The position numbers and the translations under genes were made by a program. From a virus (Duplodnaviria > Caudoviricetes), in the IMG/VR virus record IMGVR_UViG_2895221163_000002, positions 1-64,000 of that record: a DNA stretch of 64,000 nucleotides, one strand, 5' to 3'. This document shows, one piece after another, positions 1-47,085 of the stretch (within the stretch, counting starts at the first letter, position 1; every line of letters begins with the position of its first letter). Below the pieces are notes generated by a model. It worked only from the letters and a program-made list of their open reading frames with translations, ran no database searches and was not told where the DNA came from.

Positions 1-1260
1 ATGCGTGTCTACGGGCTGATCGACGGCAATTCGTTCTACTGCTCCTGCCAGCGCGCGTTTGAGCCTCGCCTGAAGCACAGGCCCGTTGTGGTGCTCAGCA
101 ACAATGACGGTTGCGCCATTGCGCGGACCCGCGAGGCCAAGGCGCTTGGTGTCAAAATGGGAGACGCCTGGCACATCGCCCGCAAACGTCCCGAGAGCCA
201 GTCGATCGTCTGGTACTCCTCGAACTATGCGCTGTATGCCGACATGTCGCGGCGGATGTATCAGGTCCTGGCAGAGCGACTGCCAGCCGTAGAGCCATAT
301 TCGATCGATGAGATGTTTCTTGATCTGAGTGACCTGCCCGGAGATCTGCATGAGCGCTGCCGGCAGATCCGCCAGGACGTGGCCGATCACGCGAAGATTC
401 CCACCTGTATCGGCTGGGGACCGACCAAGACGATCGCCAAGCTGGCGAATGGTCTCGCCAAGGATCACGTAGAACTGGACGGTCTGTGCGACCTAACAGA
501 CCCGGCCGTGCGCAAGGACTGGTATTGCCGGACAAGCATCGATGAAGTCTGGGGTATCGGCCGACAGACGAAGCAAAAGCTGTTGGGAGCAGGCATCAAG
601 ACGATCGCCGACTTCGTGGCCCTCGACGCAAAGACCGTGCGCCAGATGCTGACAGTCGTGGGCGCCCGAGTTCAGGCTGAACTGCGCGGCCAGTCGTGTC
701 TGCCTCTGTCAGATATCGCCGCCACCCGCAAAAGCATCGCCTCGACCCGGACGTTCGGCCGCCTGCTTCTAAAATGGGAGGAGATCCGGGAGGCTATTGC
801 ACACTATGCGAACAGGGCTGCGGAGAAACTGAGAGAAGATGGACTGGAAGCGGCACATCTGTCCGTCCTGATGCAGACCAATCCGCATAATGGCGACCCC
901 TGGTACGCCAAGCACGCGGCCGTCACGATCGAGCCGACGTCTGATGCTCGAGATCTGATCCGGCATGCCACAGCACTCGGACGTGCCATCTGGCTTCCGG
1001 GCTATCGGTATTTCAAGGCTGGCGTCGTTCTGTCGGACTTGCGCCCTGCTGGTAGTCAGGGCCTGATGTTCGCATTCCGGGATCCGGTCCAGTCTGCCAC
1101 GGTCATGGCCGCAATGGATGCAGTGAATGCCCGTTTTGGAAGTGGGACACTCCGCCCGGGATCAACGGGACTGAAGCGGACATGGTCGCCGCGACAGTCC
1201 CTGTTGTCAGCCCGTTACACGACCCGGTTGGAGGAGATCGTGAGGGCAAGGAGTTGGTAG
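1..1260 (+). CDS. umuC: Y-family DNA polymerase (Pol V catalytic subunit, UmuC-like)
   Basis: LIDGNSFYCSC, VVVLSNNDGC, SSNYALYADMS and YSIDE motifs; C-terminal SARYTT tail. Confidence 0.92.
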   Translation: MRVYGLIDGNSFYCSCQRAFEPRLKHRPVVVLSNNDGCAIARTREAKALGVKMGDAWHIARKRPESQSIVWYSSNYALYADMSRRMYQVLAERLPAVEPYSIDEMFLDLSDLPGDLHERCRQIRQDVADHAKIPTCIGWGPTKTIAKLANGLAKDHVELDGLCDLTDPAVRKDWYCRTSIDEVWGIGRQTKQKLLGAGIKTIADFVALDAKTVRQMLTVVGARVQAELRGQSCLPLSDIAATRKSIASTRTFGRLLLKWEEIREAIAHYANRAAEKLREDGLEAAHLSVLMQTNPHNGDPWYAKHAAVTIEPTSDARDLIRHATALGRAIWLPGYRYFKAGVVLSDLRPAGSQGLMFAFRDPVQSATVMAAMDAVNARFGSGTLRPGSTGLKRTWSPRQSLLSARYTTRLEEIVRARSW

Positions 1261-1380
1261 CTTCATCTTCTGTGTTATTCGTAGTTTTAAATTATATACT
1301 GGGGTTTTTAAGCAAGAATTAAATTATTACTTATAATTTTAAATCACAATAAAATGAAATCCGCCTTCGTTCGCGAAGCC

Positions 1381-3033
1381 TCAAAGAGGAATTCCGCGTC
1401 TTGATTTATCTTTAATCCAAGACGCAACTTTGTCGAGGAATACCCAGACGTCGTCGTTAGAGGGAAGAACATAATTCTCATCTTTGGGATCGCTTCCCAG
1501 CGCCTCGAATATATTGCGCAACCACCTTTTTTTGGTTCTATTGATTTTTAATTTCGGCAGCCAGTGTTCGACTTCCCCGTTTTGCAGGACAAAGAAACCA
1601 TATTTGTCCAGTGTCTCAAAAAGATTCTCAGCCCGCTCCCTCGCAACATTTTCAAGGAGAAGAATTCCTCCACCTGATTTGGGGTCCTTGCCGGCTGAGG
1701 TAAGATCATCCCAGACGACTTTGCGCTGCGATCTTATGGAGTCATGCGGTTTTGGATAGTATGTGGCATCCAAAAGAACGGAAAAATTGGTTTTAGGATT
1801 GAGGGCGTCGATGTCAACTATGATCGCAACAGGTATTCCAAGCGCCCGAAGCGGACCCACGATTTTATTAACTGAATCCTTACCGTTGGCGTTTAAGAAA
1901 AGGGTATTCGGTGCTCCTCGCCCAGATCCCGTTTCTAGAAGCCTCTCGTTAAGCTCTTGGTAGAAAGCGCGATCCGAATCCGCTTCGGCAACCACGACGC
2001 CTTCGTAGAAGACGCCGGACAAAGCATTTGCAGACCGTAGAAGTGGCTCTTGCATCATGGCACGTATGTCGTCGTTCGAAAGCATCCGAGCGGTAGCACT
2101 GCCTTGCTGATAGGTCAGGCGCACAACATTTGCGTTCACGCCAGACTGGATTGCTCCCATCAAAAACTGGCTGCTGTGGGTCGATACAAAAACCTGCTTG
2201 TCACCTTTGCTCGCAGCCTGAGCAAGTTCGCGACCAAGATTGTAGGCCAACGCGGGATGCAAAAAGGCTTCCGGCTCGTCGATAATCACGATCTTCGGGT
2301 CGCCGACACGTAACGCTAACAACATGCCTGTAAAGGCCTTTATTCCATCACTCGTCTCATCGATGGTACGAGCCTTAGCCATCCATTCGAGTGTGGCCTT
2401 CTCGACGGAACGCTCGTTTGGGGGCGGTGTATTTCCATACCGCAATTTGATTAGCGCTCCTTCAGAAATGTCGAGGCCAAGATAAAGGCCGAACGCTTCG
2501 AAGAGAACATCCCGCAGCGACTGCCGACAAGCATCGTCCGTTAGCAGTTTAGCAAAATCACTTTGCGGATTCTTTAGGTCGCCCCTGTCTTGTGCTGTTA
2601 TCAAACGAATTCTATTCTCTCCGTTGAGAATGAGTACACGATCAGCTGCATAGTTTTGAGCGAAACAATTTATATCCACATCAGGATCATGTAGTGCTTG
2701 ACGGAAGGCAGAGATATCTACTAATCTCCTATGATTTCCAATGCTGATATATTCCCAGCCAGGTGATTTCTGGTTTGTCAAAGTGTGGGTGTGATCTATT
2801 AATTCTTTAAGAATCGTTTCGATTTCTTCAGTTGACTGTCCGTTAAATTTGAGATCAGCAAGAATTGAGCCTCTAGGAATTCCTGATTTACTGAATTCAG
2901 CAATTTCGCTTAGGATCATACTTTTTCCTGAGTTGTTTGGCCCAACAAAAATGGTAATGCCAGGCTCATTCAACACCAGTGGCTCAGCCCCTTGGCTAGC
3001 ACCAAAACGCAATCTTAATTCCTTAATAAGCAC
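1381..3033 (-). CDS. OLD-family ATP-dependent nuclease (ABC ATPase + TOPRIM), probable anti-phage protein
   Basis: Walker A GPNNSGKS, Walker B/D-loop IIDEPEAFLHP, STHS, TOPRIM-like VAEADSD and IVDID; lower GC than its neighbours. Confidence 0.82.
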   Translation of the reverse strand: MLIKELRLRFGASQGAEPLVLNEPGITIFVGPNNSGKSMILSEIAEFSKSGIPRGSILADLKFNGQSTEEIETILKELIDHTHTLTNQKSPGWEYISIGNHRRLVDISAFRQALHDPDVDINCFAQNYAADRVLILNGENRIRLITAQDRGDLKNPQSDFAKLLTDDACRQSLRDVLFEAFGLYLGLDISEGALIKLRYGNTPPPNERSVEKATLEWMAKARTIDETSDGIKAFTGMLLALRVGDPKIVIIDEPEAFLHPALAYNLGRELAQAASKGDKQVFVSTHSSQFLMGAIQSGVNANVVRLTYQQGSATARMLSNDDIRAMMQEPLLRSANALSGVFYEGVVVAEADSDRAFYQELNERLLETGSGRGAPNTLFLNANGKDSVNKIVGPLRALGIPVAIIVDIDALNPKTNFSVLLDATYYPKPHDSIRSQRKVVWDDLTSAGKDPKSGGGILLLENVARERAENLFETLDKYGFFVLQNGEVEHWLPKLKINRTKKRWLRNIFEALGSDPKDENYVLPSNDDVWVFLDKVASWIKDKSRRGIPL

Positions 3034-3165
3034 CGCAAGTCCCTTTCAATATTGATCTCTAGACAAGAGAAATTGATTGGCCTGTCAATGCTGTCGTGTC
3101 GCACGCTCTCAACTGCAAGGAATTGCAGGTATATCTTGGAAGTTCTTGGCTTAACACATACGTTC

Positions 3166-3765
3166 CTACTCCTTGCTGAACCCTAAAAACGGTCTGGTAT
3201 TCGTTTCGCAAGAGGACGGGATAGCCGCGATTAGAAACTCGATATGCGCTGCCAGGGCTGTCCGGTCTGCTTCAACCCGCTCAGCCACGCGCTCCCGCAC
3301 AGCATCATTCTGCCCTAGCAACGCCCCGGCATAACCGACCCCTCGTCCTGCCTCGGCATCAGCCAGCGCCGACAGCGGCACAAACTGCACTGGCACGTTC
3401 AGGGTTTGGCCTTTCGTCCGACTGGCATCCGCCTGCAATCCGAAGACAGGCAGGGCCGAGGACGCCGAGACGGAGAAGGATCCCGACTGGCTGAACGTGC
3501 CAGACAGATCCATCGTCACCGGCCCGGCAATCATCGCCACGACCGGATCGGACGTGTTCTGCGCACACTGAAGCGCACGGACGTTCGCATCGAACCGGGC
3601 GGCCTGATCGGCGGTCCAGTGCTGCACACCCGAGACGCTGACCACGCCTGCCTTCGTCAGATCGGCCTGAACACCCGCAATGGCCTGGCTGATCGTGACG
3701 GACGACACGGATCCGGCCGAGCACGCGGAAAGGGCCAGAAGCGCGCAGAGTGCGAGGATCCTCAT
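3166..3765 (-). CDS. Lipoprotein, last gene of the lysis cassette
   Basis: Lipobox MRILALCALLALSA-C; start overlaps the upstream stop codon. Confidence 0.7.
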   Translation of the reverse strand: MRILALCALLALSACSAGSVSSVTISQAIAGVQADLTKAGVVSVSGVQHWTADQAARFDANVRALQCAQNTSDPVVAMIAGPVTMDLSGTFSQSGSFSVSASSALPVFGLQADASRTKGQTLNVPVQFVPLSALADAEAGRGVGYAGALLGQNDAVRERVAERVEADRTALAAHIEFLIAAIPSSCETNTRPFLGFSKE

Positions 3766-4511
3766 GCCGCCCTCACTTCTGCCAGCAGCGCCTCGAAATC
3801 CTCCCCGGTCGGCGCCGTGCCGGGAATGCCCAGCCAGTTCTCGCGCGACAGCAGGCCGTAAGCCTCATCCGCAATCCGCGTGAAGGTGTCCCACGGCATG
3901 AAAGTCCGCGTGCCCCAGGTGTTGAAGAACACGCCTTCTGGATTGTAGCCGACAAGCGCGATGGCATGGCCGCCCGCAGGTGTATGGTCTGAAAGCGCAT
4001 CCCAGTCCCATGTCTCGCCCAGACCCAGCTCAAGGAAGCCTTGCGGCACCTGCACACCCGCCAGCACGCCGCCCAGATAGGCAATGGCACGACGGATGCC
4101 CAAGACGTCAGTCGGCGCAATCGATCCATAGGCGGTCAGGTAATCGCGGGTCTGTCCCGGCCGGAGTAATCCATTGCGGCGCCAGGCGTTGAGTTCGTCT
4201 AGAAGGATGGTGCCCGGATCGTACCCGGTTTCGGCATTGAAGCCTGTCAGCGCCGCATAATTCGCCAGAACCGTTTCGGTCGAGAGCATCACAAGGCTCT
4301 GCGCGGCTTTCGTCCAGGTCGCCACCAGAGCAGCATGGGCAGCAAAGGCACAGCAGCCGAAGCGGTCATTGCCCCACATCTGATAGGGGACATTTTGCGA
4401 CCAGTCCCGCGCGGCAGGCACGGCCGGCAGACGCACGGCCAGCACCCGGCCGAGGCGATAGGTCCGCGGGTCATGTTTCGGGGCGCGCTTGCCCAGTTTT
4501 CTGTCCTGCAT
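3762..4511 (-). CDS. Papain-like (C1-like) cysteine peptidase
   Basis: GNDRFGCC (Cys), GGHAIALVGY (His) and NTWG motifs in papain order. Confidence 0.72.
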   Translation of the reverse strand: MQDRKLGKRAPKHDPRTYRLGRVLAVRLPAVPAARDWSQNVPYQMWGNDRFGCCAFAAHAALVATWTKAAQSLVMLSTETVLANYAALTGFNAETGYDPGTILLDELNAWRRNGLLRPGQTRDYLTAYGSIAPTDVLGIRRAIAYLGGVLAGVQVPQGFLELGLGETWDWDALSDHTPAGGHAIALVGYNPEGVFFNTWGTRTFMPWDTFTRIADEAYGLLSRENWLGIPGTAPTGEDFEALLAEVRAA

Positions 4512-4526
4512 GGGATCTCCGGAAAC

Positions 4527-4561
4527 AAAAAAAGAGGGGAGCAGCTGAAGCCGCTCCCCTT
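4527..4561 (-). terminator. Intrinsic terminator-like hairpin
   Basis: AGGGGAGCGGC-TTCA-GCTGCTCCCCT followed by CTTTTTTT on the minus strand. Confidence 0.7.
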
Positions 4562-4583
4562 GGGGCTGGTCAGGATCGAAAGA

Positions 4584-5084
4584 TCAGACGCCCTGATAGA
4601 TCCGGGCGCGGACCAGCTCCGGCGACTGGAGAGGTGCGGCATAGGACGCAGCCGTGACACCGGCCAAAGACTCGACCAGCGGAATCATCGCCTGGACGGT
4701 CTGCATGTAGGTGGCAGCCGAGGGCGAGTAGACCTTCACGATCGGCGTTGCGATCGCCAGCAGAGTTTCGAGATCCGCGCCGAGTGACTTGGCCCAGTCC
4801 TTGCCGGTCGCGACTGTAATCGAGCCATTGGAGTTGGCGGCCACCTGTGCGGACACGCTGCGGATCTGCGCGACCAGGTTGTCGAACTTCGCCTTGTCAG
4901 AGGCGGAGAGATGGCTTTCCAGTTCGGGAATGCCCTCGATCGCCTGGACGGCATAGGCGATGGCTGCGGCGTCATTGTTGAGCGCGGCCGTGTTGAAGGT
5001 CGCCGTGTTTGCGGTCGTGGTGCAGGCCGCCGTGGAGCCGAGAAGAAGGGCACCGAGGCTGAGGGCGAGAAAGCGATTACGCAT
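4584..5084 (-). CDS. Helical lipoprotein in the lysis cassette
   Basis: MRNRFLALSLGALLLGSTAA-C lipobox; GGAGA RBS upstream. Confidence 0.7.
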   Translation of the reverse strand: MRNRFLALSLGALLLGSTAACTTTANTATFNTAALNNDAAAIAYAVQAIEGIPELESHLSASDKAKFDNLVAQIRSVSAQVAANSNGSITVATGKDWAKSLGADLETLLAIATPIVKVYSPSAATYMQTVQAMIPLVESLAGVTAASYAAPLQSPELVRARIYQGV

Positions 5085-5099
5085 GATGTCTCCAGACAT

Positions 5100-5123
5100 A
5101 AAAAAACCGCCTCAGAGGGCGGC
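5100..5123 (-). terminator. Terminator-like hairpin + RBS repeat
   Basis: GCCGCCCTCTGAGGCGGTTTTTTT then TCTGGAGA. Confidence 0.65.
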
Positions 5124-5167
5124 GGAAGAAAGAGCGGTCTGACAGGCGGGAGCCTGCCTCCTTCGGG

Positions 5168-5503
5168 TCAGGCGGTCGATTTGGGCGGCTCGCCTGCCTT
5201 GGGATGGGTGGACGCCGGATCGAGGCCCAGCTTGGCCGCCTCGATCGTGCGGCTGGCCTCGGCCGGGATCATCAGCGCCTTGGCATCGGGCTGATAGGCG
5301 TTCGTGTTCCAGCCCTTCGACTGTGCCAGGCTGGAAACAACCTTGTAGAGCAGCGACAGCCTGCTTCCGGCCGCAGGAGGTTTCCAGAAGCGCATGACCA
5401 GAGCGGCCGCTGCGATCAGGAAGGTCAGGATCGAGACGATGTCTCCCGCATACCGCGCAGGCAGGTACGGCAGGACCGTCTGGAACAGAGTTGTCCAGTC
5501 CAT
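5168..5503 (-). CDS. Small membrane protein, holin-like
   Basis: Hydrophobic segment IVSILTFLIAAAALVMRFW; directly downstream of the lysozyme. Confidence 0.55.
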   Translation of the reverse strand: MDWTTLFQTVLPYLPARYAGDIVSILTFLIAAAALVMRFWKPPAAGSRLSLLYKVVSSLAQSKGWNTNAYQPDAKALMIPAEASRTIEAAKLGLDPASTHPKAGEPPKSTA

Positions 5504-5521
5504 GGGTGTTCTCCAGATATG

Positions 5522-5543
5522 AAAAAACCGCCTCGAGGGCGGC
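5522..5543 (-). terminator. Terminator-like hairpin + RBS repeat
   Basis: GCCGCCCTCGAGGCGGTTTTTT then CATATCTGGAGA. Confidence 0.65.
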
Positions 5544-5553
5544 ATCAGAATTT

Positions 5554-6057
5554 TCAGGCAGAGAGGAGCGTGTCCGTTGGTACGGATTGCCTCCCGAGGA
5601 AGACATCCCGCTCATAGGCGCGACGTTTGGCGAGGCCGGGCAGCTCAACCAGATGACCCCGAACGGTGGCCTTGTCCCAGCGCAGCAGTTCGTCGGCCGC
5701 CCCGGTATAATCTCCGGCATTCAGCTTGCGCAGCAGAGTCGAGCTTTCGACGGCAACGGTCCCGACATTGTACTGCCAAGACAGCAGGGCGGCGCGCTGG
5801 ACGTCCGACAGCGGCACCTGAACCAAGCGGGACAGCGCTGCATCAAACGTCGTCACGGCCAGAAGCAGGAGACTGTCAGCGGCTGCCTTATCGATGGGTG
5901 CAGTCCGGGCCGTGATTGGCTGTCCGTTGGCCAGCCAGCGGCTGCCATACCCGATCGTCCAGTATCCGGCGGGACAGACATAGGGCTTCGACCGAAAACC
6001 TTCGAACCCAGGCAGCCGCAGCAGCGCCGTGGCCAGAACGATGGCAGTGTCATACAT
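5554..6057 (-). CDS. Phage lysozyme/endolysin (GH24)
   Basis: FEGFRSKPYVCPAGYWTIGYG, YNVG, GLAKRRAYE. Confidence 0.92.
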   Translation of the reverse strand: MYDTAIVLATALLRLPGFEGFRSKPYVCPAGYWTIGYGSRWLANGQPITARTAPIDKAAADSLLLLAVTTFDAALSRLVQVPLSDVQRAALLSWQYNVGTVAVESSTLLRKLNAGDYTGAADELLRWDKATVRGHLVELPGLAKRRAYERDVFLGRQSVPTDTLLSA

Positions 6058-6256
6058 GGGGGATTTTCCATAAAAAAAAGCCGCCCGATTAGCGGTATGT
6101 TGCGCCTAAGAAAATAGGTACGAAACGGTTATTATAATAACGAAATACATAAAATTTTGCGGAATAGTGGAATGCAATGGTTTTTATTTTTCCTTAAAGG
6201 AAATCATTTTTTGTCGTAGGATGTTTATGACCAAAATGAGGTTAGGATAAAAATAC

Positions 6257-6538
6257 ATGCCTAGATTCACTGTTCGTGTCGAACTTCATAATGCCCAACC
6301 CCAAGATTACGAACTTCTGCATGAAGAAATGCTAAAATTTCATTTTAAGAGAACCATTGAGGGTACCGATGGAACGATCTATAAATTACCAACCGCCGAA
6401 TACAATATAATTAGCGCCGATACTGGCGAAGAGGTTCGTTCAAATGCATTTCAAGCAACTAAAAATATTGGGAAGTATGCATCTGTATTGGTAACCAAAT
6501 CTGATGGAATATTTTGGATTAATCTTGATGAAGAATAA
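6257..6538 (+). CDS. GhoS/DUF2622-like endoribonuclease (Cas2-like fold)
   Basis: FTVRVELH..DYELLHEEM..F.RTI..YKLPTAEY family pattern; AT-rich insert on the opposite strand. Confidence 0.75.
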   Translation: MPRFTVRVELHNAQPQDYELLHEEMLKFHFKRTIEGTDGTIYKLPTAEYNIISADTGEEVRSNAFQATKNIGKYASVLVTKSDGIFWINLDEE

Positions 6539-6596
6539 GGTAATTATTTTCCTTATTTATAATTATATAACACTATAATTTTATCTTTATCTACTA

Positions 6597-6935
6597 TCAT
6601 CTTCCAATCGACACCACCAAATGAACCACCCCGGACCCAAGGATTGACGTCGCCAGAGTAACGAGTGCCGTGACCACGGCCTTGCCGCCCATGACGCGAT
6701 CAAACTTGGATCCGAGGGCTTTGATCCCTGCCTCCAGTTCTTCTTTCAGGTCTTTGATCTGGGTGCGCAGGGACGCGATTTCCGAGCGCATCTCGGCGCG
6801 CAGATCAGACTGATTGTCTCCCAGGGCCGAGACCAGCGTTTCCAGTTTGAGAACCCGATCTTCCAGAGCACGGATGATGATGTCCTTGTCAGAGAGTGCT
6901 TTGTCGATCGGGGCAGTCATGGCGGTATCAGGCAT
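6597..6935 (-). CDS. Coiled-coil protein with C-terminal TM helix (holin/antiholin-like)
   Basis: Heptad-rich body, hydrophobic C-terminus, first gene of the lysis cassette. Confidence 0.55.
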   Translation of the reverse strand: MPDTAMTAPIDKALSDKDIIIRALEDRVLKLETLVSALGDNQSDLRAEMRSEIASLRTQIKDLKEELEAGIKALGSKFDRVMGGKAVVTALVTLATSILGSGVVHLVVSIGR

Positions 6936-6946
6936 GGTTTTTCCAT

Positions 6947-6969
6947 AAAAAAACCGCCTCATGGGCGGC
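6947..6969 (-). terminator. Terminator-like hairpin
   Basis: GCCGCCCATGAGGCGGTTTTTTT. Confidence 0.65.
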
Positions 6970-7031
6970 GGCTGTCTGTCAGGTTGTTCATCAGGTCATT
7001 TTGTTGGGTTATTGCTCTGAGTATTAACCTC

Positions 7032-9398
7032 CTAGTTGCATGCCGTTGCACTACGATAGAGCTGCCCTGATGAGTTCAGGCAGGCGTAAGCGTTCCCGGC
7101 TCCGTTCAGACTGGTAAGAACCACCCCATCCTTCATAACAGTCGTGCCTCCATTACCCCCGACAGTCAGGTTGCCTTGAATTGTGCCTGATCCCGTGACA
7201 GTCATATCGGCACTGATTGTCGTGGCATCCTTCATGCTAATGGAGCCGCCAAAGCCTCCCAGAACTGTATTCCCATGGGACGTCAGACCTCCTGTGATGA
7301 GCAGGTTACTGTTCAGGTTTGTCGGGATGTCGATATCGAAATGCGTATTCTGCCCAAGACCGGAGAGCACGACCGACGTGTCGCCAGTGCTGGCATCGGT
7401 TTGCTCTAAGAGCTGTGCAATGTTGGATCCGCTGGGACTCTGGAAAAACTGCGTTCCTTGAAGAACGATATTGGATTTGGCCGTGATTTGCTGATTGAAC
7501 GTCACCCCATCCTTGAACAGGGTGCTACCGCCATACCCACCGATAACAGCATTCCCATGTGTTTCCAGCCCCCCGGTGACAGTCAGGTCATTACCAACAG
7601 TCGTTGGCAGGTTAAACAGAACGGACGCGCCACCAGATGCCAAGCTTGAATACGCCAGTACGTTATTCTTCGATGCATCCGTGGATGCCGCTACTGCGAC
7701 GATGTTGTCGCCCGCCGTATTCTGGTAGTAGGTCGTCCCGGTCGTCACGAGGTTTGCATTCACGCTCACCTGATTTTTGAATGTTGCACCCCCGGCAACA
7801 TTGAGCGCGCCCGCCAACGATACATCACCGTTGCCAGCTACTGACAGGCCGCAATTCACGCCATATCCGCACAGCGCCACGCCGCCTGTGCTGCCCGGGA
7901 AGTCGATCTCGCCCAGCAGAGAGGCGGTATCCGTGCTGGACGTGTTGCCCTTCGTACCATTGATACGTGGCCCGAAGCGCAGGGTCGCGTTGGTGTAGCT
8001 TCCCGTTCCCGTGCCGTCGCTGGTGAGATGCGTTACCAGCCGCTCATTATACCCTGCGACGATCTGATGCAGTTCCGTCATATCGAAATCATAGACGGCT
8101 CCAACGGGAGTGAGAGCGAACAGAGAGCAGGCGGAAGGGAGATAGAGCTGATTGGTGTCGATCGCCATGTTTCCGCAGGCATCGGCAATCTCCAGATGAT
8201 GTGGCATGTCATTCGCCAGCATCAATTCGTAGCTTTCCGACGTAAACACCTGACCCGGAGTGATGGACGCTCCTGCCGGGACAGACTGGCCTCCGCCAAA
8301 CGTCAGACCGTGATAGCTCAAGGCTCCCGCCCGCGTCTCGTTCTGCACGTTGACGTCCACCTCGCCCCATTCGAGCTGATGAACTGACGACGTGTCGCGC
8401 GTACCTGCGCCCGTGAACGCGCCGTCGTACTGCATCATCGTATTGAACCCGAAGACTTTCGTCGGAGATCCCACGAACACGACAGGAGCGGGAGTTTTCG
8501 GGAAATAGAACGTATCCAGACCAGTAAGGCTCGGGGTTTGGCTGGCTCCTGAACGTCCCATCCGGTTCCAGGCCCAGACCGTGATAACGGCAGTCGGCCC
8601 CGTATTGTCCACGCTTCTGACGATGCCTGCCAGGAAATGGGGATTGTCCCATGTTTCAACATCTGATGCGGCGGGATCGGCGGAATTGGTGATGATGTAC
8701 TGGCCCTGATGGATCAACAGGAGCTGCTGCGGCGTCAGGGATACGCTTAAGGTCGCCGTTGTGGTGGTGTAAGCCGTTACGGGCAGAACCAGTCGCGCCT
8801 GACGTGACCCGGCCTCCCAGTAGATCCCAGCCGTGTCAAAGCTGATGGGAACGATCCGGCTATCCCCTTCGTAATCGTCACCGCCCAGTTCAGCCAGCAT
8901 AGTGTTCTGCTGGCCACCCGTCGTGAAGAGGCAAAGGCCGCACCCATTATTGAATGGTCCGTCGGGGTGGCTGGAAATGACCAGGCTCTGAGGCAACCCG
9001 GGTGATCCCATCGGGGAGTTTGCGACAGTCCCAAGGGGCGTGCCGCCCATCTGGAGCGTGTTGTTCCCGACCAATGGGCTGCCGAGAACGGCGGTCATGT
9101 CCTGCCCGACATACATTGACGGGTAAGCCGTCTGCGACTGGACGCCAAATGTTCCAGACGCGCTTAAAAGCGGCGCCGTCATGGCACCATTCATATTCAG
9201 TCCCGCCACACCCCCTGGCACATTCTTCTGGAGCGCGGCCATCACTGCGGCGATAGTCTGCCGATCCCAGAGTGTATTGGGGGCATTGATGATCGAAGCA
9301 CCGCTGATACCGTTGCCCGGAGCAATCCACTGGCTGGTAATAGGCGCGGCGCCTGCCAGCGACGGCAGGAGAGCCAGCGTCAGAATGAGTTTTTTCAT
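7032..9398 (-). CDS. Tail fibre/spike-like beta-rich protein with an N-terminal signal peptide
   Basis: Last gene of the tail module; G/T/S/N-rich; KNVPGGVAGL motif; tandem ~94-aa repeats; MKKLILTLALLPSLAGAA leader. Confidence 0.6.
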   Translation of the reverse strand: MKKLILTLALLPSLAGAAPITSQWIAPGNGISGASIINAPNTLWDRQTIAAVMAALQKNVPGGVAGLNMNGAMTAPLLSASGTFGVQSQTAYPSMYVGQDMTAVLGSPLVGNNTLQMGGTPLGTVANSPMGSPGLPQSLVISSHPDGPFNNGCGLCLFTTGGQQNTMLAELGGDDYEGDSRIVPISFDTAGIYWEAGSRQARLVLPVTAYTTTTATLSVSLTPQQLLLIHQGQYIITNSADPAASDVETWDNPHFLAGIVRSVDNTGPTAVITVWAWNRMGRSGASQTPSLTGLDTFYFPKTPAPVVFVGSPTKVFGFNTMMQYDGAFTGAGTRDTSSVHQLEWGEVDVNVQNETRAGALSYHGLTFGGGQSVPAGASITPGQVFTSESYELMLANDMPHHLEIADACGNMAIDTNQLYLPSACSLFALTPVGAVYDFDMTELHQIVAGYNERLVTHLTSDGTGTGSYTNATLRFGPRINGTKGNTSSTDTASLLGEIDFPGSTGGVALCGYGVNCGLSVAGNGDVSLAGALNVAGGATFKNQVSVNANLVTTGTTYYQNTAGDNIVAVAASTDASKNNVLAYSSLASGGASVLFNLPTTVGNDLTVTGGLETHGNAVIGGYGGSTLFKDGVTFNQQITAKSNIVLQGTQFFQSPSGSNIAQLLEQTDASTGDTSVVLSGLGQNTHFDIDIPTNLNSNLLITGGLTSHGNTVLGGFGGSISMKDATTISADMTVTGSGTIQGNLTVGGNGGTTVMKDGVVLTSLNGAGNAYACLNSSGQLYRSATACN

Positions 9399-9805
9399 TT
9401 GCCGTCATCCACCTGGGTTGCGACACCGGCATTGTTCTGAAAGCCGTTGAAATTGGTGCCAGCTCCCATGGTCGGACTTGCGGCCAGGAGTGCAGCGAGA
9501 GACGCGGCGAGAGCCTGAGGCGACAAGGGCATGCCAGACGCCGTGCCTGTCATGGCCGAATATGCAAATACGTCACCGTTCATCCACAGACCGCCGCCCT
9601 CCGGCGCTTTTGTTGGAAGCGTCTGCCCAAGCTGGAGAAGGCCCAGAGCTACGATCGACACCGCAAAATTGTTTGCGGTGATGTTGCAAGGCTCATAGCC
9701 GGTGACAGTATTCTGGGCATTGAGAACAGGCCGGAGGAAGACAAGCAGATCCGTCGCCTGCACGCTCGTTTGCGTGAGTGCGGGGTCAGACGCGAGTTGA
9801 GGCAT
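9395..9805 (-). CDS. Hypothetical tail-associated protein
   Basis: ORF coupled (ATGA overlap) to the 788-aa gene. Confidence 0.6.
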   Translation of the reverse strand: MPQLASDPALTQTSVQATDLLVFLRPVLNAQNTVTGYEPCNITANNFAVSIVALGLLQLGQTLPTKAPEGGGLWMNGDVFAYSAMTGTASGMPLSPQALAASLAALLAASPTMGAGTNFNGFQNNAGVATQVDDGK

Positions 9806-9810
9806 GGGGT

Positions 9811-10260
9811 CTATCCGAAGATCAGGGGGTTTCCGGAGGCATCAGGCACGATCGCCGAGCCAAGGAAAAAGGCATTCGGGGCATAGGCCGGGGCGTCACA
9901 GGTAATCAGCTGGGGCGCGCAGCGGACTATGATGGAGGCGGTAGCCGTGAAGACTGCGCCTGTGGCCGTGCGAACGGAAAGCGTTGCTGTTTGCGCGCCT
10001 GAGCACAGCCATTGCACCCACATAGTGGCCAGGGTTCCGAAAGTGCTGGTCCATGCGATCACGCCGCCGCTGCACATGGCTTCAACTTCCACGATCCGGT
10101 CGGAGCGCCCCAGAAGATGCGAGAAATCAATGCTGTAATCTGCAGATTCGTTCAGTGATGTTTCGGGCCAGCAAAGCCAGATGGGAGGGGAAGTCCCGCG
10201 AACTTGAAAAGATCGCGGGACTTCTGCGCGTAAGATACGCCGAGCCGGAACCCACGTCAT
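9811..10260 (-). CDS. Hypothetical tail-associated (adaptor-like) protein
   Basis: Start MTWVP overlaps the upstream stop; WPETSLNESADYSIDFS motif. Confidence 0.6.
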   Translation of the reverse strand: MTWVPARRILRAEVPRSFQVRGTSPPIWLCWPETSLNESADYSIDFSHLLGRSDRIVEVEAMCSGGVIAWTSTFGTLATMWVQWLCSGAQTATLSVRTATGAVFTATASIIVRCAPQLITCDAPAYAPNAFFLGSAIVPDASGNPLIFG

Positions 10261-19860: not shown

Positions 19861-21339
19861 TTAGGATTTTACGAACTGGACGCTGCCGGCGATGATCCGG
19901 AGCTGATTGGCGAAGTCGTACGGCATCAGCAGCTTGACGACGCCGTTGCCCGTATTCTCCGCAACGATATTGGCGGCGAATGTATCTGCATTCTGAACCC
20001 AGAGCTGTGTTGCCTGCCAGCGGTACCGCGATGCACAGGCCTTGCCGATCAGCTTCGCCGTGGTCGCTTTGGCACCAGCCGGGATCTTGGTCCCGTCAGC
20101 GACAAGGATGCACCCGCCATACTGGCTTCCGAGGAAGATCCGCATGTCTTGCATGCAGATCTCTGCCGTCAGCATGGTCTCGATATCGAGATAGCTGTTA
20201 TCCGGTAGACCCGAGGCGTTGGTCTGGTAGGTTGTCACCAGGCGCTCGATATTGACCGTGCCGCTGTCGTCGACGGTGAAGGTCGAGAGGCCATCATACA
20301 GGAGGCTGTTGCGCTGCTCTGTTGAGTAGCGGCCAGCATCGGTCGGCGGCATGACAGTCAGGGACAGTGCCGTGATCGGCAGCGCCGGATTGCTCCGCAT
20401 GCTCATCGCCGTTCGCGCTGCCACCTGAGCCGCCCAGGAAAGAGGATCAGACGGACTGTCCCCGATCGGCATGACCGTCGCGTGCTGATCATTCTGTGTC
20501 AGCCCGAAAGCTGTCGCCTGCCCGTATGTTCCACGATAGGCCGTGATGGCATGCCCGTAGAGCTGAAGCATCGGCGACCACCGACCAGCCGTATCGTTCA
20601 GCCATGCCTTCAGCGCGACCAGAGAGCCGCTATCCGTATAGGGGTGGCTGATCAGGTCATAAACGCGTTCGCCCTGTGTCGCGAGAGACGTCGCCAGCGT
20701 GGTCGGGTTCGTCTTGCCTCCGGACATCTGACCCAGAGCAACCGTCAGACCAGACGGAACCGACTGACCACCGGCAGTTCCGAGTACAGCAACTCCCAGA
20801 AGAATATCATTGCCAGACATTCCCTTGTTAATCGCAGTCAGCGTCACCGTCCCCGTTGACGAGGTCACAGATACCGGCAGAGCCGAGACGGCCGCCGCAG
20901 CGGTAGCGACACCAGAAGCGACCGTCGCGGCAGTATCACCCGCATTGACCGCGACACTGATCAGCTGATCGCCGACGTACAGCGGAAGCGTTCCCGCTTC
21001 TGTCGCGGCCCCGGAAATCGTGAATGTGCCTGTGGCAGCAGTAGCCGATGAATCATCGGTCAGCGGAAGAACCCAGATCTCACCTTGCGTGTCGATAGCC
21101 CGGTAGGCCTTGACCAAACGCGCGCACTGAGAAGCCGCGCCATATTTGCTGACCGCATCCGAATAACCGCCCGAGAGCGTGGCAACGCCAGCAACACCGC
21201 TGCCTGCGACCATCTGACCAATGATCAGCACGCGACGAGCGACAGCAGCCGTATTGGCCTTGGAGTTATCCAGAGCAAAGTAGAGACCCGGAACCCGGTT
21301 CGTGTCCGAGTAATTCGGTACCGTGATGGATCCGCTCAT
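19861..21339 (-). CDS. Tail sheath protein (Mu gpL-like)
   Basis: RVPGLY..DNS.A, HPYTD, LLYDGLST, IERLVTTYQ.N. Confidence 0.92.
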   Translation of the reverse strand: MSGSITVPNYSDTNRVPGLYFALDNSKANTAAVARRVLIIGQMVAGSGVAGVATLSGGYSDAVSKYGAASQCARLVKAYRAIDTQGEIWVLPLTDDSSATAATGTFTISGAATEAGTLPLYVGDQLISVAVNAGDTAATVASGVATAAAAVSALPVSVTSSTGTVTLTAINKGMSGNDILLGVAVLGTAGGQSVPSGLTVALGQMSGGKTNPTTLATSLATQGERVYDLISHPYTDSGSLVALKAWLNDTAGRWSPMLQLYGHAITAYRGTYGQATAFGLTQNDQHATVMPIGDSPSDPLSWAAQVAARTAMSMRSNPALPITALSLTVMPPTDAGRYSTEQRNSLLYDGLSTFTVDDSGTVNIERLVTTYQTNASGLPDNSYLDIETMLTAEICMQDMRIFLGSQYGGCILVADGTKIPAGAKATTAKLIGKACASRYRWQATQLWVQNADTFAANIVAENTGNGVVKLLMPYDFANQLRIIAGSVQFVKS

Positions 21340-25010: not shown

Positions 25011-25808
25011 TCAGAGCTTGAGAAAGGCGGCTATGGCCTCTTCCGGCGTGGCGATCTCGTCTGCCAGGCCGATCTCCACCCCATGCCGCCCCAAATAGGT
25101 ACCGGCCTGGGTATTTCTCACCACGTCCGCTTCAATCCCGCGATTACGCGCGACTGTCTGCACAAAGAAATCGCCCATTTCATCGATTTCTGCCTGCGCC
25201 CGCTCACGAGCAGGATCCGTCATCGGCGTGGTTGGATAACCATCAGTCTTTCGGGCGCCGTACTGGAATGTCGTCACCTTGATGCCAGCCTTGTCCAGCG
25301 CATCCGTGATGTCGACATGCATGCCGACGCAACCGATCGATCCGGTTCCACCCATCTGCGGAACCGTGATGAAATCAGCTGCTGAAGCGACGGCATAGGC
25401 CGCCGAGAAGGCTGCATCATTCAGGATCGCCCAGATCGGCTTTTCCCCCCGCGCCCGATAAATCATCTCGGCAGTATCAAAGCATTCACTTACGGTCCCG
25501 CCTGGAGAATTCACCATCAGTGCAATCCGGCTGACGGATGCGTCGTCAAGCGCCGCATTCAGGGCTTTTCGGATGTCCTGATAATATGTTGCCCCAGACC
25601 AGCTCCATCCGGTTCCCGGAAGAAGAATTCCGGAGACCGGGATCAGAGCGACGCCCTGCACGACTTCATATGACTGGGCCTCAGTGTCACGCTCACCAAA
25701 GAAGGCCTCAGCCCCCGCTCCGGCCTCAAACGACCGCTTCAGCAATGCTGATCGAGCGTTCGACAGCATCAGTGGCCGATTCAGGAAAAGAGATGCGGCC
25801 TGTGTCAT
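25011..25808 (-). CDS. S49 family head maturation protease (gpC-like)
   Basis: NSPGG, AFSAAYAVAS, GSIG. Confidence 0.9.
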   Translation of the reverse strand: MTQAASLFLNRPLMLSNARSALLKRSFEAGAGAEAFFGERDTEAQSYEVVQGVALIPVSGILLPGTGWSWSGATYYQDIRKALNAALDDASVSRIALMVNSPGGTVSECFDTAEMIYRARGEKPIWAILNDAAFSAAYAVASAADFITVPQMGGTGSIGCVGMHVDITDALDKAGIKVTTFQYGARKTDGYPTTPMTDPARERAQAEIDEMGDFFVQTVARNRGIEADVVRNTQAGTYLGRHGVEIGLADEIATPEEAIAAFLKL

Positions 25809-27493
25809 TTCGCGTCCTCCTCCTTTGGTTGAGCGGCATCCTCTGCCGCAACACCGCTGAGCGCCCATTCCGGAGGTGTGAGCCCCAGTTCCCTGAAACG
25901 ATTGACCTCGACAGCACGTTGATCGACCTTTTCTTCCCAGTCCGCCCCACTGTTCTCGGCGATCTCGTCCTCGAGCGTTGTCAGGCCGGCATCGATGCCC
26001 ATGATCGAACCTTTCCGTTCGGCCACAGGATCGATCCAGCCACGTCCGGGTCCAAGCCAGTTACACCGTGAAAGCGGCGTTCGCAGGCGGGGGAAATACT
26101 TGGCCAGAAACCCGCGCGGCGCACCTGCCGGCAATGGCAGTTCGTCATAAAGAGCTACGCATTCTTCAAGCCATGCGGTTCGCATGGGAGAAGCGTAGCC
26201 CTGAGCGAAGTTCTTTCGCCGACGATCCATCGTCTTCCATGCCTCGAGCATGGCCGCACGAGCAGAAGAATAGTTCACGTCTGACCAGTTATTACTGACC
26301 TGCATGGACGAGACCCCCGCGCCGGAGGCAACATTCCGCAAAACGGCGCTCTCGAACGCTGCAAAGTTGGAATTCGGCCGCGCTGCATCAACAGTGTTGA
26401 TCTTCTCGCCCGGAGCCAACATTGGCATGCGAACCCCACCCAGCATGACCCGGTTTTCATCATGGAACGCCGTCCGGACGTCCTGATAAGCCATGACACC
26501 GTCACCCCCACCCGCACCCAGAGCGTCTGCCACCATCTCCTGATCGTAAGGAGATTCGACGTACGCCCCGAAAATGGAATTGACGATCGCGGCGTCCAGT
26601 TCTGTTCCATCATACTTGATGAGCATCTTCAGCCGTTGAACGACTGGGGCGAGAATTCCCGCTCCGCCGCGATGCTGGCCTGCACGCTCAGTCTGGAAAT
26701 GGTGCACCATACTTGCGCGGCCCCATTCGGTCTCACGCTCGATATAATCCCATTCCTGCGTTTCTGCCGCCGAGAACCAGTCTCCCTGATGAGCCCGCCG
26801 AATATGGTATCCGAGTGGTGCACCCCATTCGTCGATCTGGACGCCGCCGCGGCAGTATTTCAGATCCCAGTTATTCTGGGGGACAGACAGTCTGTCCGGA
26901 TCGATCAGGTTGAAACAGGTTGCATATTCGGCCCGCCCTTCCCCGATCCGCTCTGGAAGCCAGCAGACTTGGGCAAGGCTGTCGCCATCCACCAGGTCGT
27001 GCCGCAAGCCTGTCCAGCACATTTGCGTAAAGCTGAGCCTGCGGCCGACATCGCAATATCGATTTTCGTCTTCAGCGAACCCCCGCCAGTGGCTGTCGAC
27101 AGCCCTCCCCCATTCGTCCGCCCATACCGCATCGAATGACAGGCCGGTCTTCACGCGCAATGCACGATAGTCTGGCTTGCTGATTGCGCGAAAGGAGCCG
27201 CCGATTGCGTTGTCCAGAACACGGGTGATTGTGCCCGAAGCCCAGCCATCGTTTCGAACCAGGTCCCTGATGCGGGAGACGATTCGGTCGCGATAGACAT
27301 TCAGCTCAACGTCCGGCGACCACAGCAGCGGATTCCAGGCCTCCATGTGAGGCCCGGTGATGTCCGCGGCATCATAAGGGGTCTGCCCCCAACCACCCGC
27401 CAGTCCCATCGCGCGACGACGACGTGGCAGCGCAGGCGTCCGGGGCATCCCTTTTCCATCAGGCCCGAGAATGACTGCGCTGCGATCTGTCAT
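25805..27493 (-). CDS. Portal protein (lambda gpB family)
   Basis: RDLVRNDGWA, GQHRG, NYSSARA, GRGWIDP. Confidence 0.93.
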   Translation of the reverse strand: MTDRSAVILGPDGKGMPRTPALPRRRRAMGLAGGWGQTPYDAADITGPHMEAWNPLLWSPDVELNVYRDRIVSRIRDLVRNDGWASGTITRVLDNAIGGSFRAISKPDYRALRVKTGLSFDAVWADEWGRAVDSHWRGFAEDENRYCDVGRRLSFTQMCWTGLRHDLVDGDSLAQVCWLPERIGEGRAEYATCFNLIDPDRLSVPQNNWDLKYCRGGVQIDEWGAPLGYHIRRAHQGDWFSAAETQEWDYIERETEWGRASMVHHFQTERAGQHRGGAGILAPVVQRLKMLIKYDGTELDAAIVNSIFGAYVESPYDQEMVADALGAGGGDGVMAYQDVRTAFHDENRVMLGGVRMPMLAPGEKINTVDAARPNSNFAAFESAVLRNVASGAGVSSMQVSNNWSDVNYSSARAAMLEAWKTMDRRRKNFAQGYASPMRTAWLEECVALYDELPLPAGAPRGFLAKYFPRLRTPLSRCNWLGPGRGWIDPVAERKGSIMGIDAGLTTLEDEIAENSGADWEEKVDQRAVEVNRFRELGLTPPEWALSGVAAEDAAQPKEEDAK

Positions 27494-37824: not shown

Positions 37825-38043
37825 TCATGCGGCTTGCCCCGGCTCTTCAATAGAAATCTCGTGAATGAGATCACTCGCCGTAACTTGCCCGTCGGTGGCT
37901 CTGTGTATTGCTCCCAGCATTCGTGGCGAGGGAATGGTTTGCCGCGAAATCCACCGTGAAACAGTCGTATGCGACACACCCAAACGCCGCGCGAGCGACA
38001 TTTGGTTTTCTCTGTTGGCCGTCATCCATGCTTCGAGCTTCAT
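37825..38043 (-). CDS. Cro-like repressor
   Basis: XRE HTH LARRLGVSHTTVSRW; divergent from CI. Confidence 0.85.
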   Translation of the reverse strand: MKLEAWMTANRENQMSLARRLGVSHTTVSRWISRQTIPSPRMLGAIHRATDGQVTASDLIHEISIEEPGQAA

Positions 38044-38051
38044 GTAATTTA

Positions 38052-38084
38052 TGTGCACCCCATGCACTGTGCATGTCAAGCACA
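38052..38084. promoter_or_regulatory. Two operator palindromes (OR-like) of prophage A
   Basis: TGTGCACCCCATGCACT and TGTGCATGTCAAGCACA, overlapping a minus-strand TTGACA. Confidence 0.75.
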
Positions 38085-38135
38085 TTGTGCGTGAGGCGGC
38101 GTGGCATCTCCCTGAAAGGGGCGTGAGACTGCGAT

Positions 38136-38456
38136 ATGCCTAAGATGAACCTCTCCCTTCAGTCCCACCTACGCGCATGGCGCAAACAAGTAGGGTTGTC
38201 ACAAGAACAATTAGGGAACAAAATGGATGTCGCGCATACAACTGTAGGCCGATGGGAGCGTGGAGAAGTGCCACTTACGTCCGACCAATTCGAGCATTTG
38301 GCCCGGATTTTCGAGGTTTCTCCAGCTGAACTTCTTGTCGCGCCACCTGACGCAGCCTCCGTCCGAGTCCTGCATGAAACATATGAAATAGTCCGGAACA
38401 TGAGCCCTGAGACGCTTAGGCACTGGCTCGAAATCGGCAAGAAGCTCAGTTCATAA
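38136..38456 (+). CDS. CI-like XRE repressor (no peptidase domain)
   Basis: LRAWRK..GLSQEQLG..TVGRWERG. Confidence 0.85.
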   Translation: MPKMNLSLQSHLRAWRKQVGLSQEQLGNKMDVAHTTVGRWERGEVPLTSDQFEHLARIFEVSPAELLVAPPDAASVRVLHETYEIVRNMSPETLRHWLEIGKKLSS

Positions 38457-38463
38457 ATTTATA

Positions 38464-38515
38464 TGTGCATGGTGCGCACAATTTAGGTTGACAGACAATG
38501 TGCACGAAATGCACA
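38464..38515 (+). promoter_or_regulatory. Two operator palindromes (OL-like) flanking TTGACA
   Basis: TGTGCATGGTGCGCACA and TGTGCACGAAATGCACA. Confidence 0.75.
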
Positions 38516-38549
38516 TTCCTCCCATCGCCACCCGCGATGGAGAGGTTTC

Positions 38550-39962: not shown

Positions 39963-39963
39963 C

Positions 39964-42832: not shown

Positions 42833-42835
42833 CAG

Positions 42836-44626: not shown

Positions 44627-44670
44627 GAAGGAGGCCTTCTGTAAGTATCTGATAAACAGATATTTTAGTT

Positions 44671-47084: not shown

Positions 47085-47085
47085 C

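Follow-up and report, generated by a model that had tools for sequence, protein, structure and literature searches.

A lysis cassette apparently without spanins that links a papain-family peptidase to two lipoproteins

The genes of the cassette and their products

A 64,000-nucleotide stretch of Caudoviricetes DNA (the window; positions 1 to 64,000 of IMG/VR record IMGVR_UViG_2895221163_000002) carries a lysis cassette at 3166-6935 that includes a papain-family peptidase and two lipoproteins and appears to lack a canonical spanin. The cassette is the last unit in the late gene series of a myovirus prophage that occupies about 3.1-42 kb of the window, and it is co-oriented with the late operon, whose genes lie on the minus strand. 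Its genes encode, in order along this strand, a coiled-coil protein, a GH24 endolysin, a membrane protein (TM1), a lipoprotein (LP1), the peptidase (PEP) and a second lipoprotein (LP2). An earlier sequence-only reading of this DNA had listed six genes in this order, and both the open reading frame (ORF) list and the sequence bear it out. With gene starts refined by ribosome-binding site, the end coordinate of 6935 given in that reading also proves to be the true ATG of the coiled-coil protein gene.

PEP (3762-4511, minus strand) is a papain-fold (C1) cysteine peptidase of 249 aa that resembles xylellain. Its AlphaFold model (pLDDT 91.0, pTM 0.90) finds xylellain (3ois) as its top match in a Foldseek search of the PDB (E = 5.5e-13, TMq 0.69). 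Cathepsins B, K and L and mite allergens such as Der p 1 follow, and there are 248 matches at E <= 0.001. A PEP profile run against PDB sequences reaches cathepsin K (E = 1.3e-4) with C54 and H182 aligned on the catalytic residues, and both belong to the set of positions that are invariant in 23 aligned sequences (Asn48, Cys54, His182, Trp199, Asp215 and Glu216). Conventional family models do not capture the protein: there is no Pfam match at E <= 0.1 (and none over the Peptidase_C1 gathering threshold) and no NCBIfam match, and its PHROG assignment is a family of unknown function (phrog_19005, 3e-26). Several of the 56 relatives found in a protein search are named 'C1 family peptidase' or 'C39-like' by their source. 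The profile against the PDB, the predicted structure and these NCBI homologue names all indicate that PEP is a genuine papain-fold (C1) enzyme, as the sequence-only reading had supposed from its Cys and His motifs.

The same reading placed the protease in the cytoplasm, and this too holds up. No hydrophobic window in PEP reaches 1.4, so that it has no recognisable signal or transmembrane (TM) segment and would be expected to stay in the cytoplasm until the membrane opens. Among viral structures (BFVD), the best matches are phage 'Peptidase_C1' proteins, some of them longer and annotated as N-acetylmuramidase or peptidoglycan-binding, with actinophage endolysins and Lysin A among the weaker matches. 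A role as prohead protease was considered for PEP and rejected, given a separate head maturation protease at 25011-25868 (minus strand). The PADLOC library of 2023 contains no model that matches PEP, LP1, LP2 or TM1.

LP2 (3166-3765, minus strand) encodes a 199-aa lipoprotein with a lipobox ending in LALSA-C15, and it belongs to phrog_28078 (2e-51), whose function is unknown. Its ATG overlaps the stop codon of PEP (ATGA), an arrangement that points to translational coupling of LP2 to PEP. A word-based search recovers 159 relatives, and an exhaustive profile search finds 113 representative clusters at E <= 0.001, 66 of them at 1e-10, with most members about 170-270 aa long. All of 63 aligned sequences keep the lipobox Cys (C15), Pro74, Gly89 and Cys186, and nearly all keep Gln66 and Cys67. 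The two conserved Cys residues of the mature part would suit a disulfide-bonded periplasmic protein. The LP2 profile matches nothing outside the window's genome in 400 other genomes of the phylum (seven candidates scored per genome), and the LP2 representatives P0285, P0255, P0237 and P0234 have no relatives on the viral contigs searched.

The only Pfam family that recurs for LP2 is Trypco2 (PF19631), always below the cut-off. Kaur et al. (PMC7159879) defined Trypco1 and Trypco2 by their occurrence beside trypsin-like peptidases in conflict systems. Under the new name Pepco, Evans et al. (bioRxiv 10.1101/2025.11.14.688446) describe proteins of about 117 aa that are paired with serine or cysteine proteases, pre-assemble as a 9-10-mer beta-barrel with basal amphipathic helices and become membrane-permeabilising toxins once the protease trims their C-terminal tail. 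Matches to Trypco2 at E <= 0.1 occur in 7 of 20 close LP2 members (best 0.012) and in 1 of 98 representatives (E = 0.0023). In the Atlas language-model feature search, Trypco2 clusters make up 3 of the 30 matches to LP2; they score 0.90 and have 180 features in common with it.

A profile-profile comparison may point in the same direction. An alignment of 93 LP2 sequences (Neff 6.5) was compared by hhalign with 12 true Trypco2 proteins that score over the cut-off, two from 301 genomes of the class and ten from 401 of the phylum. LP2 residues 22-127 align on Trypco2 positions 3-80 (P = 2.9e-4, score 27.8), with residues 44-71 of LP2 as a 28-residue insertion. Controls give P = 0.3 for reversed LP2, 0.084 for PEP and 0.57 for LP1, and in the shuffling test the LP2 score of 28.8 lies above all 127 column shuffles (maximum 17.9) and all 127 shuffles of blocks of eight (maximum 21.0). 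The AlphaFold monomer of LP2 is poor (pLDDT 59) and leaves residues 84-122 unplaced. This segment is Ser/Gly-rich and highly conserved and has alternating hydrophobic residues, which would be compatible with a hairpin that becomes ordered only in an oligomeric barrel. Residues 22-127 of LP2 are thus a candidate Trypco2/Pepco-like domain followed by a helical C-terminal extension, a lead rather than an assignment to the family.

LP1 (4584-5084, minus strand) encodes a lipoprotein of 166 aa that was recognised by lipobox scan and hydropathy (LGSTAA-C21). Its mature part of about 145 aa contains 4% Pro and no C-terminal TM segment, and hydrophobic windows are confined to the signal peptide. None of its 54 homologues carries a name more specific than 'lipoprotein', and the Atlas search returns only clusters of unnamed lipoproteins. 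Some LP1 relatives have clear twin-arginine signals of the form S-R-R-x-F-L (L034:6753-7331, L036:6872-7480, L081:7315-7872 and L001:3690-4265). The corresponding motif in the window is a degenerate R-N-R-F-L, and the phiKX1 relative matches Pfam TAT_signal at 0.0059. A Tat-exported lipoprotein would be unusual within a lysis cassette.

TM1 (5168-5503, minus strand) encodes a membrane protein of 111 aa with one strong hydrophobic segment (residues 16-41) and a hydrophilic C-terminal tail. It matches no family in Pfam, NCBIfam or PHROGs (best phrog_36423, 0.0037), and no described holin family in these three collections is matched by either TM1 or the coiled-coil protein. Its size, TM content, hydrophilic tail and position make TM1 the likeliest holin. 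Basic residues directly follow its TM segment, no coiled coil is matched, and TM1 relatives show by eye a second hydrophobic helix after a Pro-Pro turn; for these reasons and because of its tail, TM1 looks more like a holin than an i-spanin. TM1 is kept directly after non-homologous endolysins in phiKX1 and phiKM1, and in the L081 and L085 cassettes the protein in its position is the sole membrane protein available as a holin.

The GH24 endolysin (5554-6057, minus strand) is a clear family member, with 125.4 bits against a PF00959 cut-off of 22.3 (E = 2.1e-36) and a match to the phrog_7 endolysins at 6.2e-46. It has no signal, and a signal-arrest-release (SAR) endolysin was rejected since the N-terminal hydrophobic stretch is too short; only about 18 residues precede the catalytic Glu. 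The coiled-coil protein (6597-6935, minus strand; 112 aa) has a C-terminal membrane anchor. Its single hydrophobic segment spans residues 81-112 (17-residue hydropathy windows reach 1.4 only at 81-95), it matches Pfam coiled-coil families weakly, and phrog_937 'hemolysin' is found at E = 0.034. Because the anchor is C-terminal and the N-terminal part is highly charged, that part is probably cytoplasmic, which would be the architecture of XhlA-type lysis proteins and not of an i-spanin. Both phiKX1 and phiKM1 carry an analogue of this protein.

The sequence-only reading saw no i-spanin with a nested or overlapping Pro-rich o-spanin, and several lines of analysis agree with it. A heuristic lipobox search at every start codon detects only LP1 and LP2 on the transcribed strand from 3000 to 7100, and again only these two on both strands of window positions 1-50000, so that no nested or overlapping ORF of the Rz1 type is present. 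Searches of Pfam, NCBIfam and PHROGs with TM1, LP1 and LP2 detect no spanin family, which answers in the negative the question raised by that reading of whether the lipoproteins belong to known spanin families. In a tblastn search of 50,697 phage records, LP2, TM1 and the LP1 relative of L081 (which stood in for the window's LP1) match only Komagataeibacter 'hypothetical' proteins. By predicted topology, neither TM1 nor the coiled-coil protein combines an N-terminal TM segment with a periplasmic coiled coil as an i-spanin does. On the o-spanin side, no lipoprotein ORF is embedded or overlapping, and LP1, of the length and Pro content given above, directly follows TM1 in a separated layout. Neither LP1 nor LP2 joins a lipoprotein signal to a C-terminal TM segment in the manner of a unimolecular spanin; LP2 has one borderline hydrophobic window at residue 170, which contains His and Glu.

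Gene neighbourhoods of PEP and of the cassette

A scan of one genome per species yielded 79 PEP loci, whose content was determined by six-frame iterative profile searches; the genes at these loci were called with a simple purpose-built program, which makes some errors. LP1 lies upstream of PEP in 54 of the 79, TM1 is present in 39, LP2 adjoins PEP in 35, a coiled-coil homologue precedes the endolysin in 9, and GH24 is found in 4. A conserved neighbourhood had been proposed as a check on the cassette. The part of this expectation that stands is the recurrence of PEP near lysis genes in very different phages, and the part that does not is a fixed three-gene module, as the LP1 and LP2 counts show.

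The TM1-LP1-PEP-LP2 block is widespread among Gluconobacter prophages, where the order is endolysin, TM1, LP1, PEP and LP2, followed by oppositely oriented genes. The Gluconobacter endolysin is either GH24 or a protein of 159-166 aa that is SLT-like by eye and has no Pfam match. More broadly, the upstream endolysin varies from GH24 in the window to Hydrolase_2 in L081, GH108 in L085 and another type without Pfam match in phiKX1. The window's genome itself holds three full copies of TM1-LP1-PEP-LP2, the cassette included. The other two lie at G000:C6:113935-118548 and G000:C18:21418-23777 (PEP identity 72-96%), and an LP2 pseudogene with two in-frame TAG stops occurs on a 2-kb contig (G000:C51:129-488).

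In more distant loci, L066-L084 have, in this order, Hydrolase_2 (6.9e-8), a membrane protein of about 116 aa, a twin-arginine LP1, an optional lipoprotein of 92-96 aa, PEP and a different kind of lipoprotein of about 150 aa ('LP3'). L083 and L085 have GH108 (1.8e-20), a small protein with two TM segments, a 160-aa lipoprotein and PEP, followed by a tail assembly chaperone and the tape measure. In phage MW202816, a PEP homologue with 35.5% identity overlaps the end of an amidase endolysin gene. As a separate observation, the L066-L084 arrangement (for example L081:6439-9304 and L077:6182-9232) forms a five-to-six-gene island in metagenome-assembled genomes of Acetobacteraceae, Rhodospirillales and Lichenihabitans. 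Its 92-96-aa lipoprotein is proline-rich, and by eye the island has the same host-looking flanks on both sides, with no other phage genes seen. Such islands may be domesticated lysis modules.

Of 54 PEP loci in IMG/VR, 26 were set aside: 17 window-type or PEP-fragment loci (L087-L099, L103, L111, L114 and L140), eight apparent duplicates (L107-L110, L117, L121, L122 and L139) and L135, in which the caller found no PEP gene. For the 28 distinct distant loci that were kept, the same-strand neighbours within -2.6/+1.3 kb (118 proteins) were scanned against Pfam. A wall hydrolase scores over the cut-off in nine: GH25 in L113, L116 and L120, Amidase_2 in L105, L133 and L136, GH108 in L137, Hydrolase_2 in L129 and Peptidase_M15_4 in L138. 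A LydA holin lies near PEP in L104, L101 has a sub-threshold Rv2525c-like match, and 17 of the 28 show no lysis gene recognisable by Pfam among these neighbours. Random placement of one endolysin gene per contig predicts about 3.8 such loci, and the probability of at least nine lies between 0.0012 (p = 0.10) and 0.018 (p = 0.15). Since Pfam misses some endolysins, the enrichment that these figures give is a minimum.

Other ORFs intervene at some PEP loci. Several have an additional ORF, some 150-200 aa in length, between the LP1 and PEP genes (L034:7381-7995, L036:7708-8004 and similar ORFs of 147-204 aa in L017, L025, L075, L091, L092 and L096). Those of L034 and L036 have no Pfam match at E <= 0.01, and by eye the ORF shows Cys/His motifs reminiscent of permuted papain-like amidases. 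At L008:8842-10644, an ORF between PEP and LP2 encodes a Gp77 fibre-adaptor domain and collagen repeats and is tail-fibre-like.

Terminator-like hairpins, which like the plus-strand ORF at 6257-6538 go unmentioned in the sequence-only reading, precede five of the six lysis genes. Each consists of a G+C stem and a run of T6-8 located 10-20 bases ahead of the gene start, on the minus strand: at 4535-4560 before PEP, 5106-5123 before LP1, 5527-5543 before TM1, 6081-6095 before GH24 and 6953-6969 before the coiled-coil protein gene. There is none between PEP and LP2, and a further element of this kind lies at 55315-55325. Positions 1200-10000 contain 16 terminator-like sites against 8.0 +/- 2.8 in shuffles, and five of them stand just before cassette starts. 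The word GGCGGTTTTTT, common to the hairpins, occurs four times in the window where 0.02 are expected, and three hairpins share GCCGCCC..GAGGCGG. Among the relatives L007-L046, a hairpin lies ahead of LP1 in 22 of 31, TM1 in 14 of 34, PEP in 5 of 39 and LP2 in none of 33. These elements may reflect antitermination in the late operon or modular gene-start units.

The names of homologues, which come from Gluconobacter, Acetobacter and their relatives, suggest that the window is a stretch of chromosome from a Gluconobacter-like acetic acid bacterium. Other late genes on the minus strand include the terminase (28537-30690) and the sheath (19861-21339). Portal, major head protein, tape measure, baseplate and tail fibre genes lie upstream of the cassette on the same strand, and the integrase is at 41723-42832. 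Directly after LP2 follows an OLD-family ATPase/TOPRIM nuclease (1381-3033, minus strand; Pfam AAA_21, AAA_15 and OLD-like_TOPRIM; PADLOC Old 7.9e-26), likely a defence gene at the prophage edge, and the downstream plus-strand ORF 1-1260 resembles by eye a Y-family polymerase. Attachment-site repeats, taken as exact words of at least 13 bases, were not found between 1200-3300 and 38000-50000. A plus-strand ORF of 93 aa (6257-6538) matches phrog_8894 (2.8e-25) and, below the cut-offs, YmfI (4.8e-11) and GhoS (0.0015). It lies in an A+T-rich island (6060-6600) inserted between the coiled-coil gene and the endolysin, and it is probably a moron. A nucleotide search of the cassette region against phages returns only two patches of 60-70 bases.

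A tentative mechanism and its alternatives

We tentatively propose, at somewhat less than an even chance, that PEP enters the periplasm after holin triggering and cuts LP2 and/or host envelope tethers, and that the outer membrane is breached in this way. Judged from their lipoboxes and signal peptides, LP1 and LP2 would be exported and lipidated before lysis. In E. coli, Ser or Thr at position +2 sends lipoproteins to the outer membrane. Residue +2 is Ser in LP2 and Thr in LP1, so that under this rule both are predicted to reach the outer membrane. GH24 and PEP have no export signals and would accumulate in the cytoplasm.

For the holin, wall and cleavage steps we infer a compartment switch, in which TM1 would trigger and open the inner membrane and both enzymes would reach the periplasm. 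GH24 could then degrade the wall. The favoured target of PEP is LP2, from which it would probably remove the C-terminal helical region 131-199, and the trimmed LP2 could pierce or damage the outer membrane as a Pepco-like barrel. An alternative or additional target would be the host proteins by which outer membrane and wall are held together. LP1, always beside a holin-like gene, may be a further envelope-acting lipoprotein. A bolder version is that phages of acetic acid bacteria replaced spanins by a latent outer-membrane Pepco-like lipoprotein and a holin-released protease that arms a beta-barrel lesion, a device borrowed from or ancestral to protease-pore defence; in this version the acidic periplasm of the hosts might also help to switch PEP on, much as acid acts on cathepsin zymogens. 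We regard this as speculative and unlikely.

The sequence-only reading had suggested an undescribed outer-membrane disruption module. What survives of this is a lysis cassette without recognisable spanins and with a signal-less papain-fold protease linked to lysis genes; PEP, LP1 and LP2 are not fixed together as the parts of one module would be. Processing of a lipoprotein by the protease is supported circumstantially by the likeness of LP2 to Pepco/Trypco2.

A number of observations weigh against this proposal, some of them concerning LP2 itself. The LP2 of the window scores 14.8 bits against Trypco2 (E = 0.034), below the gathering cut-off of 24.2, and falls outside the family by that measure. 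A shallow LP2 alignment gives P = 0.21 in hhalign, and the deeper one reaches a probability of only 40%. The later Trypco2 tests are not fully independent because the family was picked as the top Pfam match. LP2 is also an exported and lipidated protein of 199 aa that has an insertion of 28 residues and is 70 residues longer at its C-terminus, whereas Pepco is cytoplasmic and about 117 aa long. Among six LP2 copies in five other genera, PEP is adjacent to three, lies elsewhere in the genome for one and was not found for two. Broad LP2 and Trypco2 profiles run on 133 PEP loci detect nothing in the distant ones, which carry other partners.

Other points of this kind concern the linkage. The enrichment of endolysins near PEP in the distant phages is real but modest, at about 2.4-fold. 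LP2 is absent from 44 of the 79 PEP loci, so that the pairing is frequent and not obligate, and an ORF of 480-600 aa separates PEP from LP2 in L007, L008, L009 and L011. The Komagataeibacter phages phiKX1 and phiKM1 carry the pair at the end of the prophage, past antirepressor, HicAB and RelA/SpoT-like morons that separate it from the lysis genes, and in the window it is followed by the OLD-family nuclease, a typical moron position. Nine Acetobacter loci (L053, L054, L058-L062, L065 and L074) have a lone PEP with neighbours that look like housekeeping genes by eye. These lone homologues share 41-47% identity and have a conserved, apparently chromosomal context without lysis genes.

PEP might act on the wall rather than on a lipoprotein. 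As a second wall lysin it would cut stem peptides or cross-links and be a free-standing counterpart of actinophage papain-like domains, with the lipoproteins independent of it. We consider this unlikely, though it has precedent in the papain-family N5 domain on record in mycobacteriophage Lysin A (PMC3314691). The N-acetylmuramidase, peptidoglycan-binding, endolysin and Lysin A names among the BFVD matches speak for a wall lysin, as do PEP genes directly beside GH25, GH108 or amidase genes (L116, L120, L136, L137 and MW202816) and the loci with PEP and no LP2. However, the closest structures are those of true C1 protein proteases (xylellain and cathepsins) and not of NlpC/P60 or CHAP wall amidases. 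A wall lysin would also leave the coupling of PEP to LP2 or LP3-type lipoproteins unexplained and would assign nothing to the outer-membrane step in a spanin-less phage.

The terminal position of the PEP-LP2 pair in the prophage, next to a nuclease with a PADLOC Old match, raises a second alternative: the pair could be a moron, a protease with a Pepco-like effector that serves defence, abortive infection or lysogenic conversion and has nothing to do with lysis. Pepco-protease pairs are described as defence modules (bioRxiv 10.1101/2025.11.14.688446), in phiKX1 and phiKM1 the pair stands beside the integrase with morons between it and the lysis genes, and the lone Acetobacter PEP genes have a host-like context. 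We nevertheless find this quite improbable. The PADLOC models of 2023 match neither PEP nor LP2, PEP has no sensor domain, and LP2, which has two conserved Cys, is exported as a lipoprotein while Pepco acts from the cytoplasm. PEP is also co-oriented with the late operon and recurs within lysis cassettes of unrelated phages, in L085 with lysis genes on one side and genes for the tail chaperone and the tape measure on the other.

Very improbable in our estimate is that TM1 and LP1 form a divergent two-component 'separated' spanin, which would make PEP and LP2 extras in a cassette of conventional function. A membrane protein and then a lipoprotein directly after the endolysin is the canonical spanin position, and the TM1-LP1 pair is kept behind different endolysins. 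Separated spanins exist, as do o-spanins without proline-rich regions, according to PMC6139136, and the same paper quotes an average upper bound of about 250 aa, against 277 aa for TM1 and LP1 together with a mature LP1 of about 145 aa. Neither protein matches a spanin family, and TM1 has no predicted coiled coil, has basic residues after its TM segment and shows a second hydrophobic helix in its relatives, features more in keeping with a holin than with a type II i-spanin. Were TM1 a spanin, no holin would be left in cassettes of the L081 and L085 type, which have a single membrane protein.

Least probable of all is that LP1 and LP2 are superinfection-exclusion or surface-modifying lipoproteins expressed from the prophage and that outer-membrane disruption is unneeded or achieved by shear. 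Roles of this kind are common among phage lipoproteins encoded close to lysis genes, and LP2 occurs without detectable PEP in two genera. Against this, LP1 keeps its place between PEP and the holin-like gene in 54 of the 79 PEP loci, and LP2 appears translationally coupled to PEP. In several metagenome-assembled genomes, moreover, the five-to-six-gene island (wall hydrolase, membrane protein, LP1, PEP and lipoprotein) persists with no other phage genes around it, as expected of a functional lysis unit and not of a means to exclude other phages.

Comparison with known systems

The cassette shares with lambda S/R/Rz/Rz1 its clustered late genes, a cytoplasmic endolysin that depends on a holin, and a membrane protein and lipoprotein directly downstream. 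Unlike the lambda cassette, it lacks a coiled-coil protein of type II topology in the inner membrane, a small lipoprotein gene that is embedded or overlapping, and any match to a spanin family, and two large lipoproteins and a C1 protease take the place of the spanins.

With Pepco modules, the cassette has in common a non-enzymatic protein encoded beside a protease, and LP2 aligns to Trypco2 positions 3-80. Pepco (10.1101/2025.11.14.688446; PMC7159879) is a small protein with an N-terminal amphipathic helix and then a beta-hairpin region, features that may be common to LP2. LP2 differs from Pepco in being a 199-aa exported lipoprotein with an insertion and a C-terminal helical extension and in its score below the cut-off. 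The module as a whole differs in its sensor-less C1 protease, its location in a phage late operon and its putative target, the outer membrane, which would be attacked from the periplasm.

The use of a papain-family peptidase as a lysis enzyme recalls the N5 domain of mycobacteriophage Lysin A (PMC3314691). That domain is fused to an amidase or a muramidase in phages of Actinobacteria, whereas PEP is free-standing and belongs to phages of a Gram-negative host. Like xylellain (PDB 3ois), PEP has a short N-terminal extension with a G-x-x-P...D-x-R motif aligned ahead of the catalytic Cys. The two are only 17% identical, and xylellain is a chromosomal C1A protease of Xylella fastidiosa with no known link to lysis. 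For the cutting of envelope tethers, Lysin B offers a functional analogy, as an additional enzyme whose action frees the outer layer from its attachment to the wall.

About 15% of phages lack spanins according to a preprint abstract, and how these phages pass the outer membrane is an open question. The only alternative worked out so far is a cationic peptide, phiKT gp28, which resembles the present case in its Gram-negative host, the lack of a spanin and the use of an alternative cassette gene for the last step. According to its abstract (bioRxiv 10.1101/515445), gp28 is a small cationic membrane-active peptide, unlike the protease and lipoproteins that are the candidates here. The literature searched contains no case in which the lysis cassette of a phage of Gram-negative bacteria includes a C1 or papain-like protease, and in a term search of its main text a paper on phages of acetic acid bacteria (PMC8566455) does not discuss lysis genes.

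The C1 protease gene, conserved in lysis cassettes of many unrelated phages, is a genetically tractable candidate for passage through the outer membrane. If the proposed role is correct, then PEP would represent a new class of lysis enzyme and would link phage lysis mechanistically to prokaryotic protease-effector immunity. It could also provide tools against Gram-negative envelopes and for the control of phage lysis in vinegar and gluconate fermentations. The lysis cassette, the C1 protease and the lipoproteins are each of a known kind. As far as the literature searched shows, what is new is that a C1 protease with a gene of its own recurs in the lysis cassettes of phages of Gram-negative hosts, and that in a phage without spanins it is coupled to a lipoprotein that may be Pepco-like.

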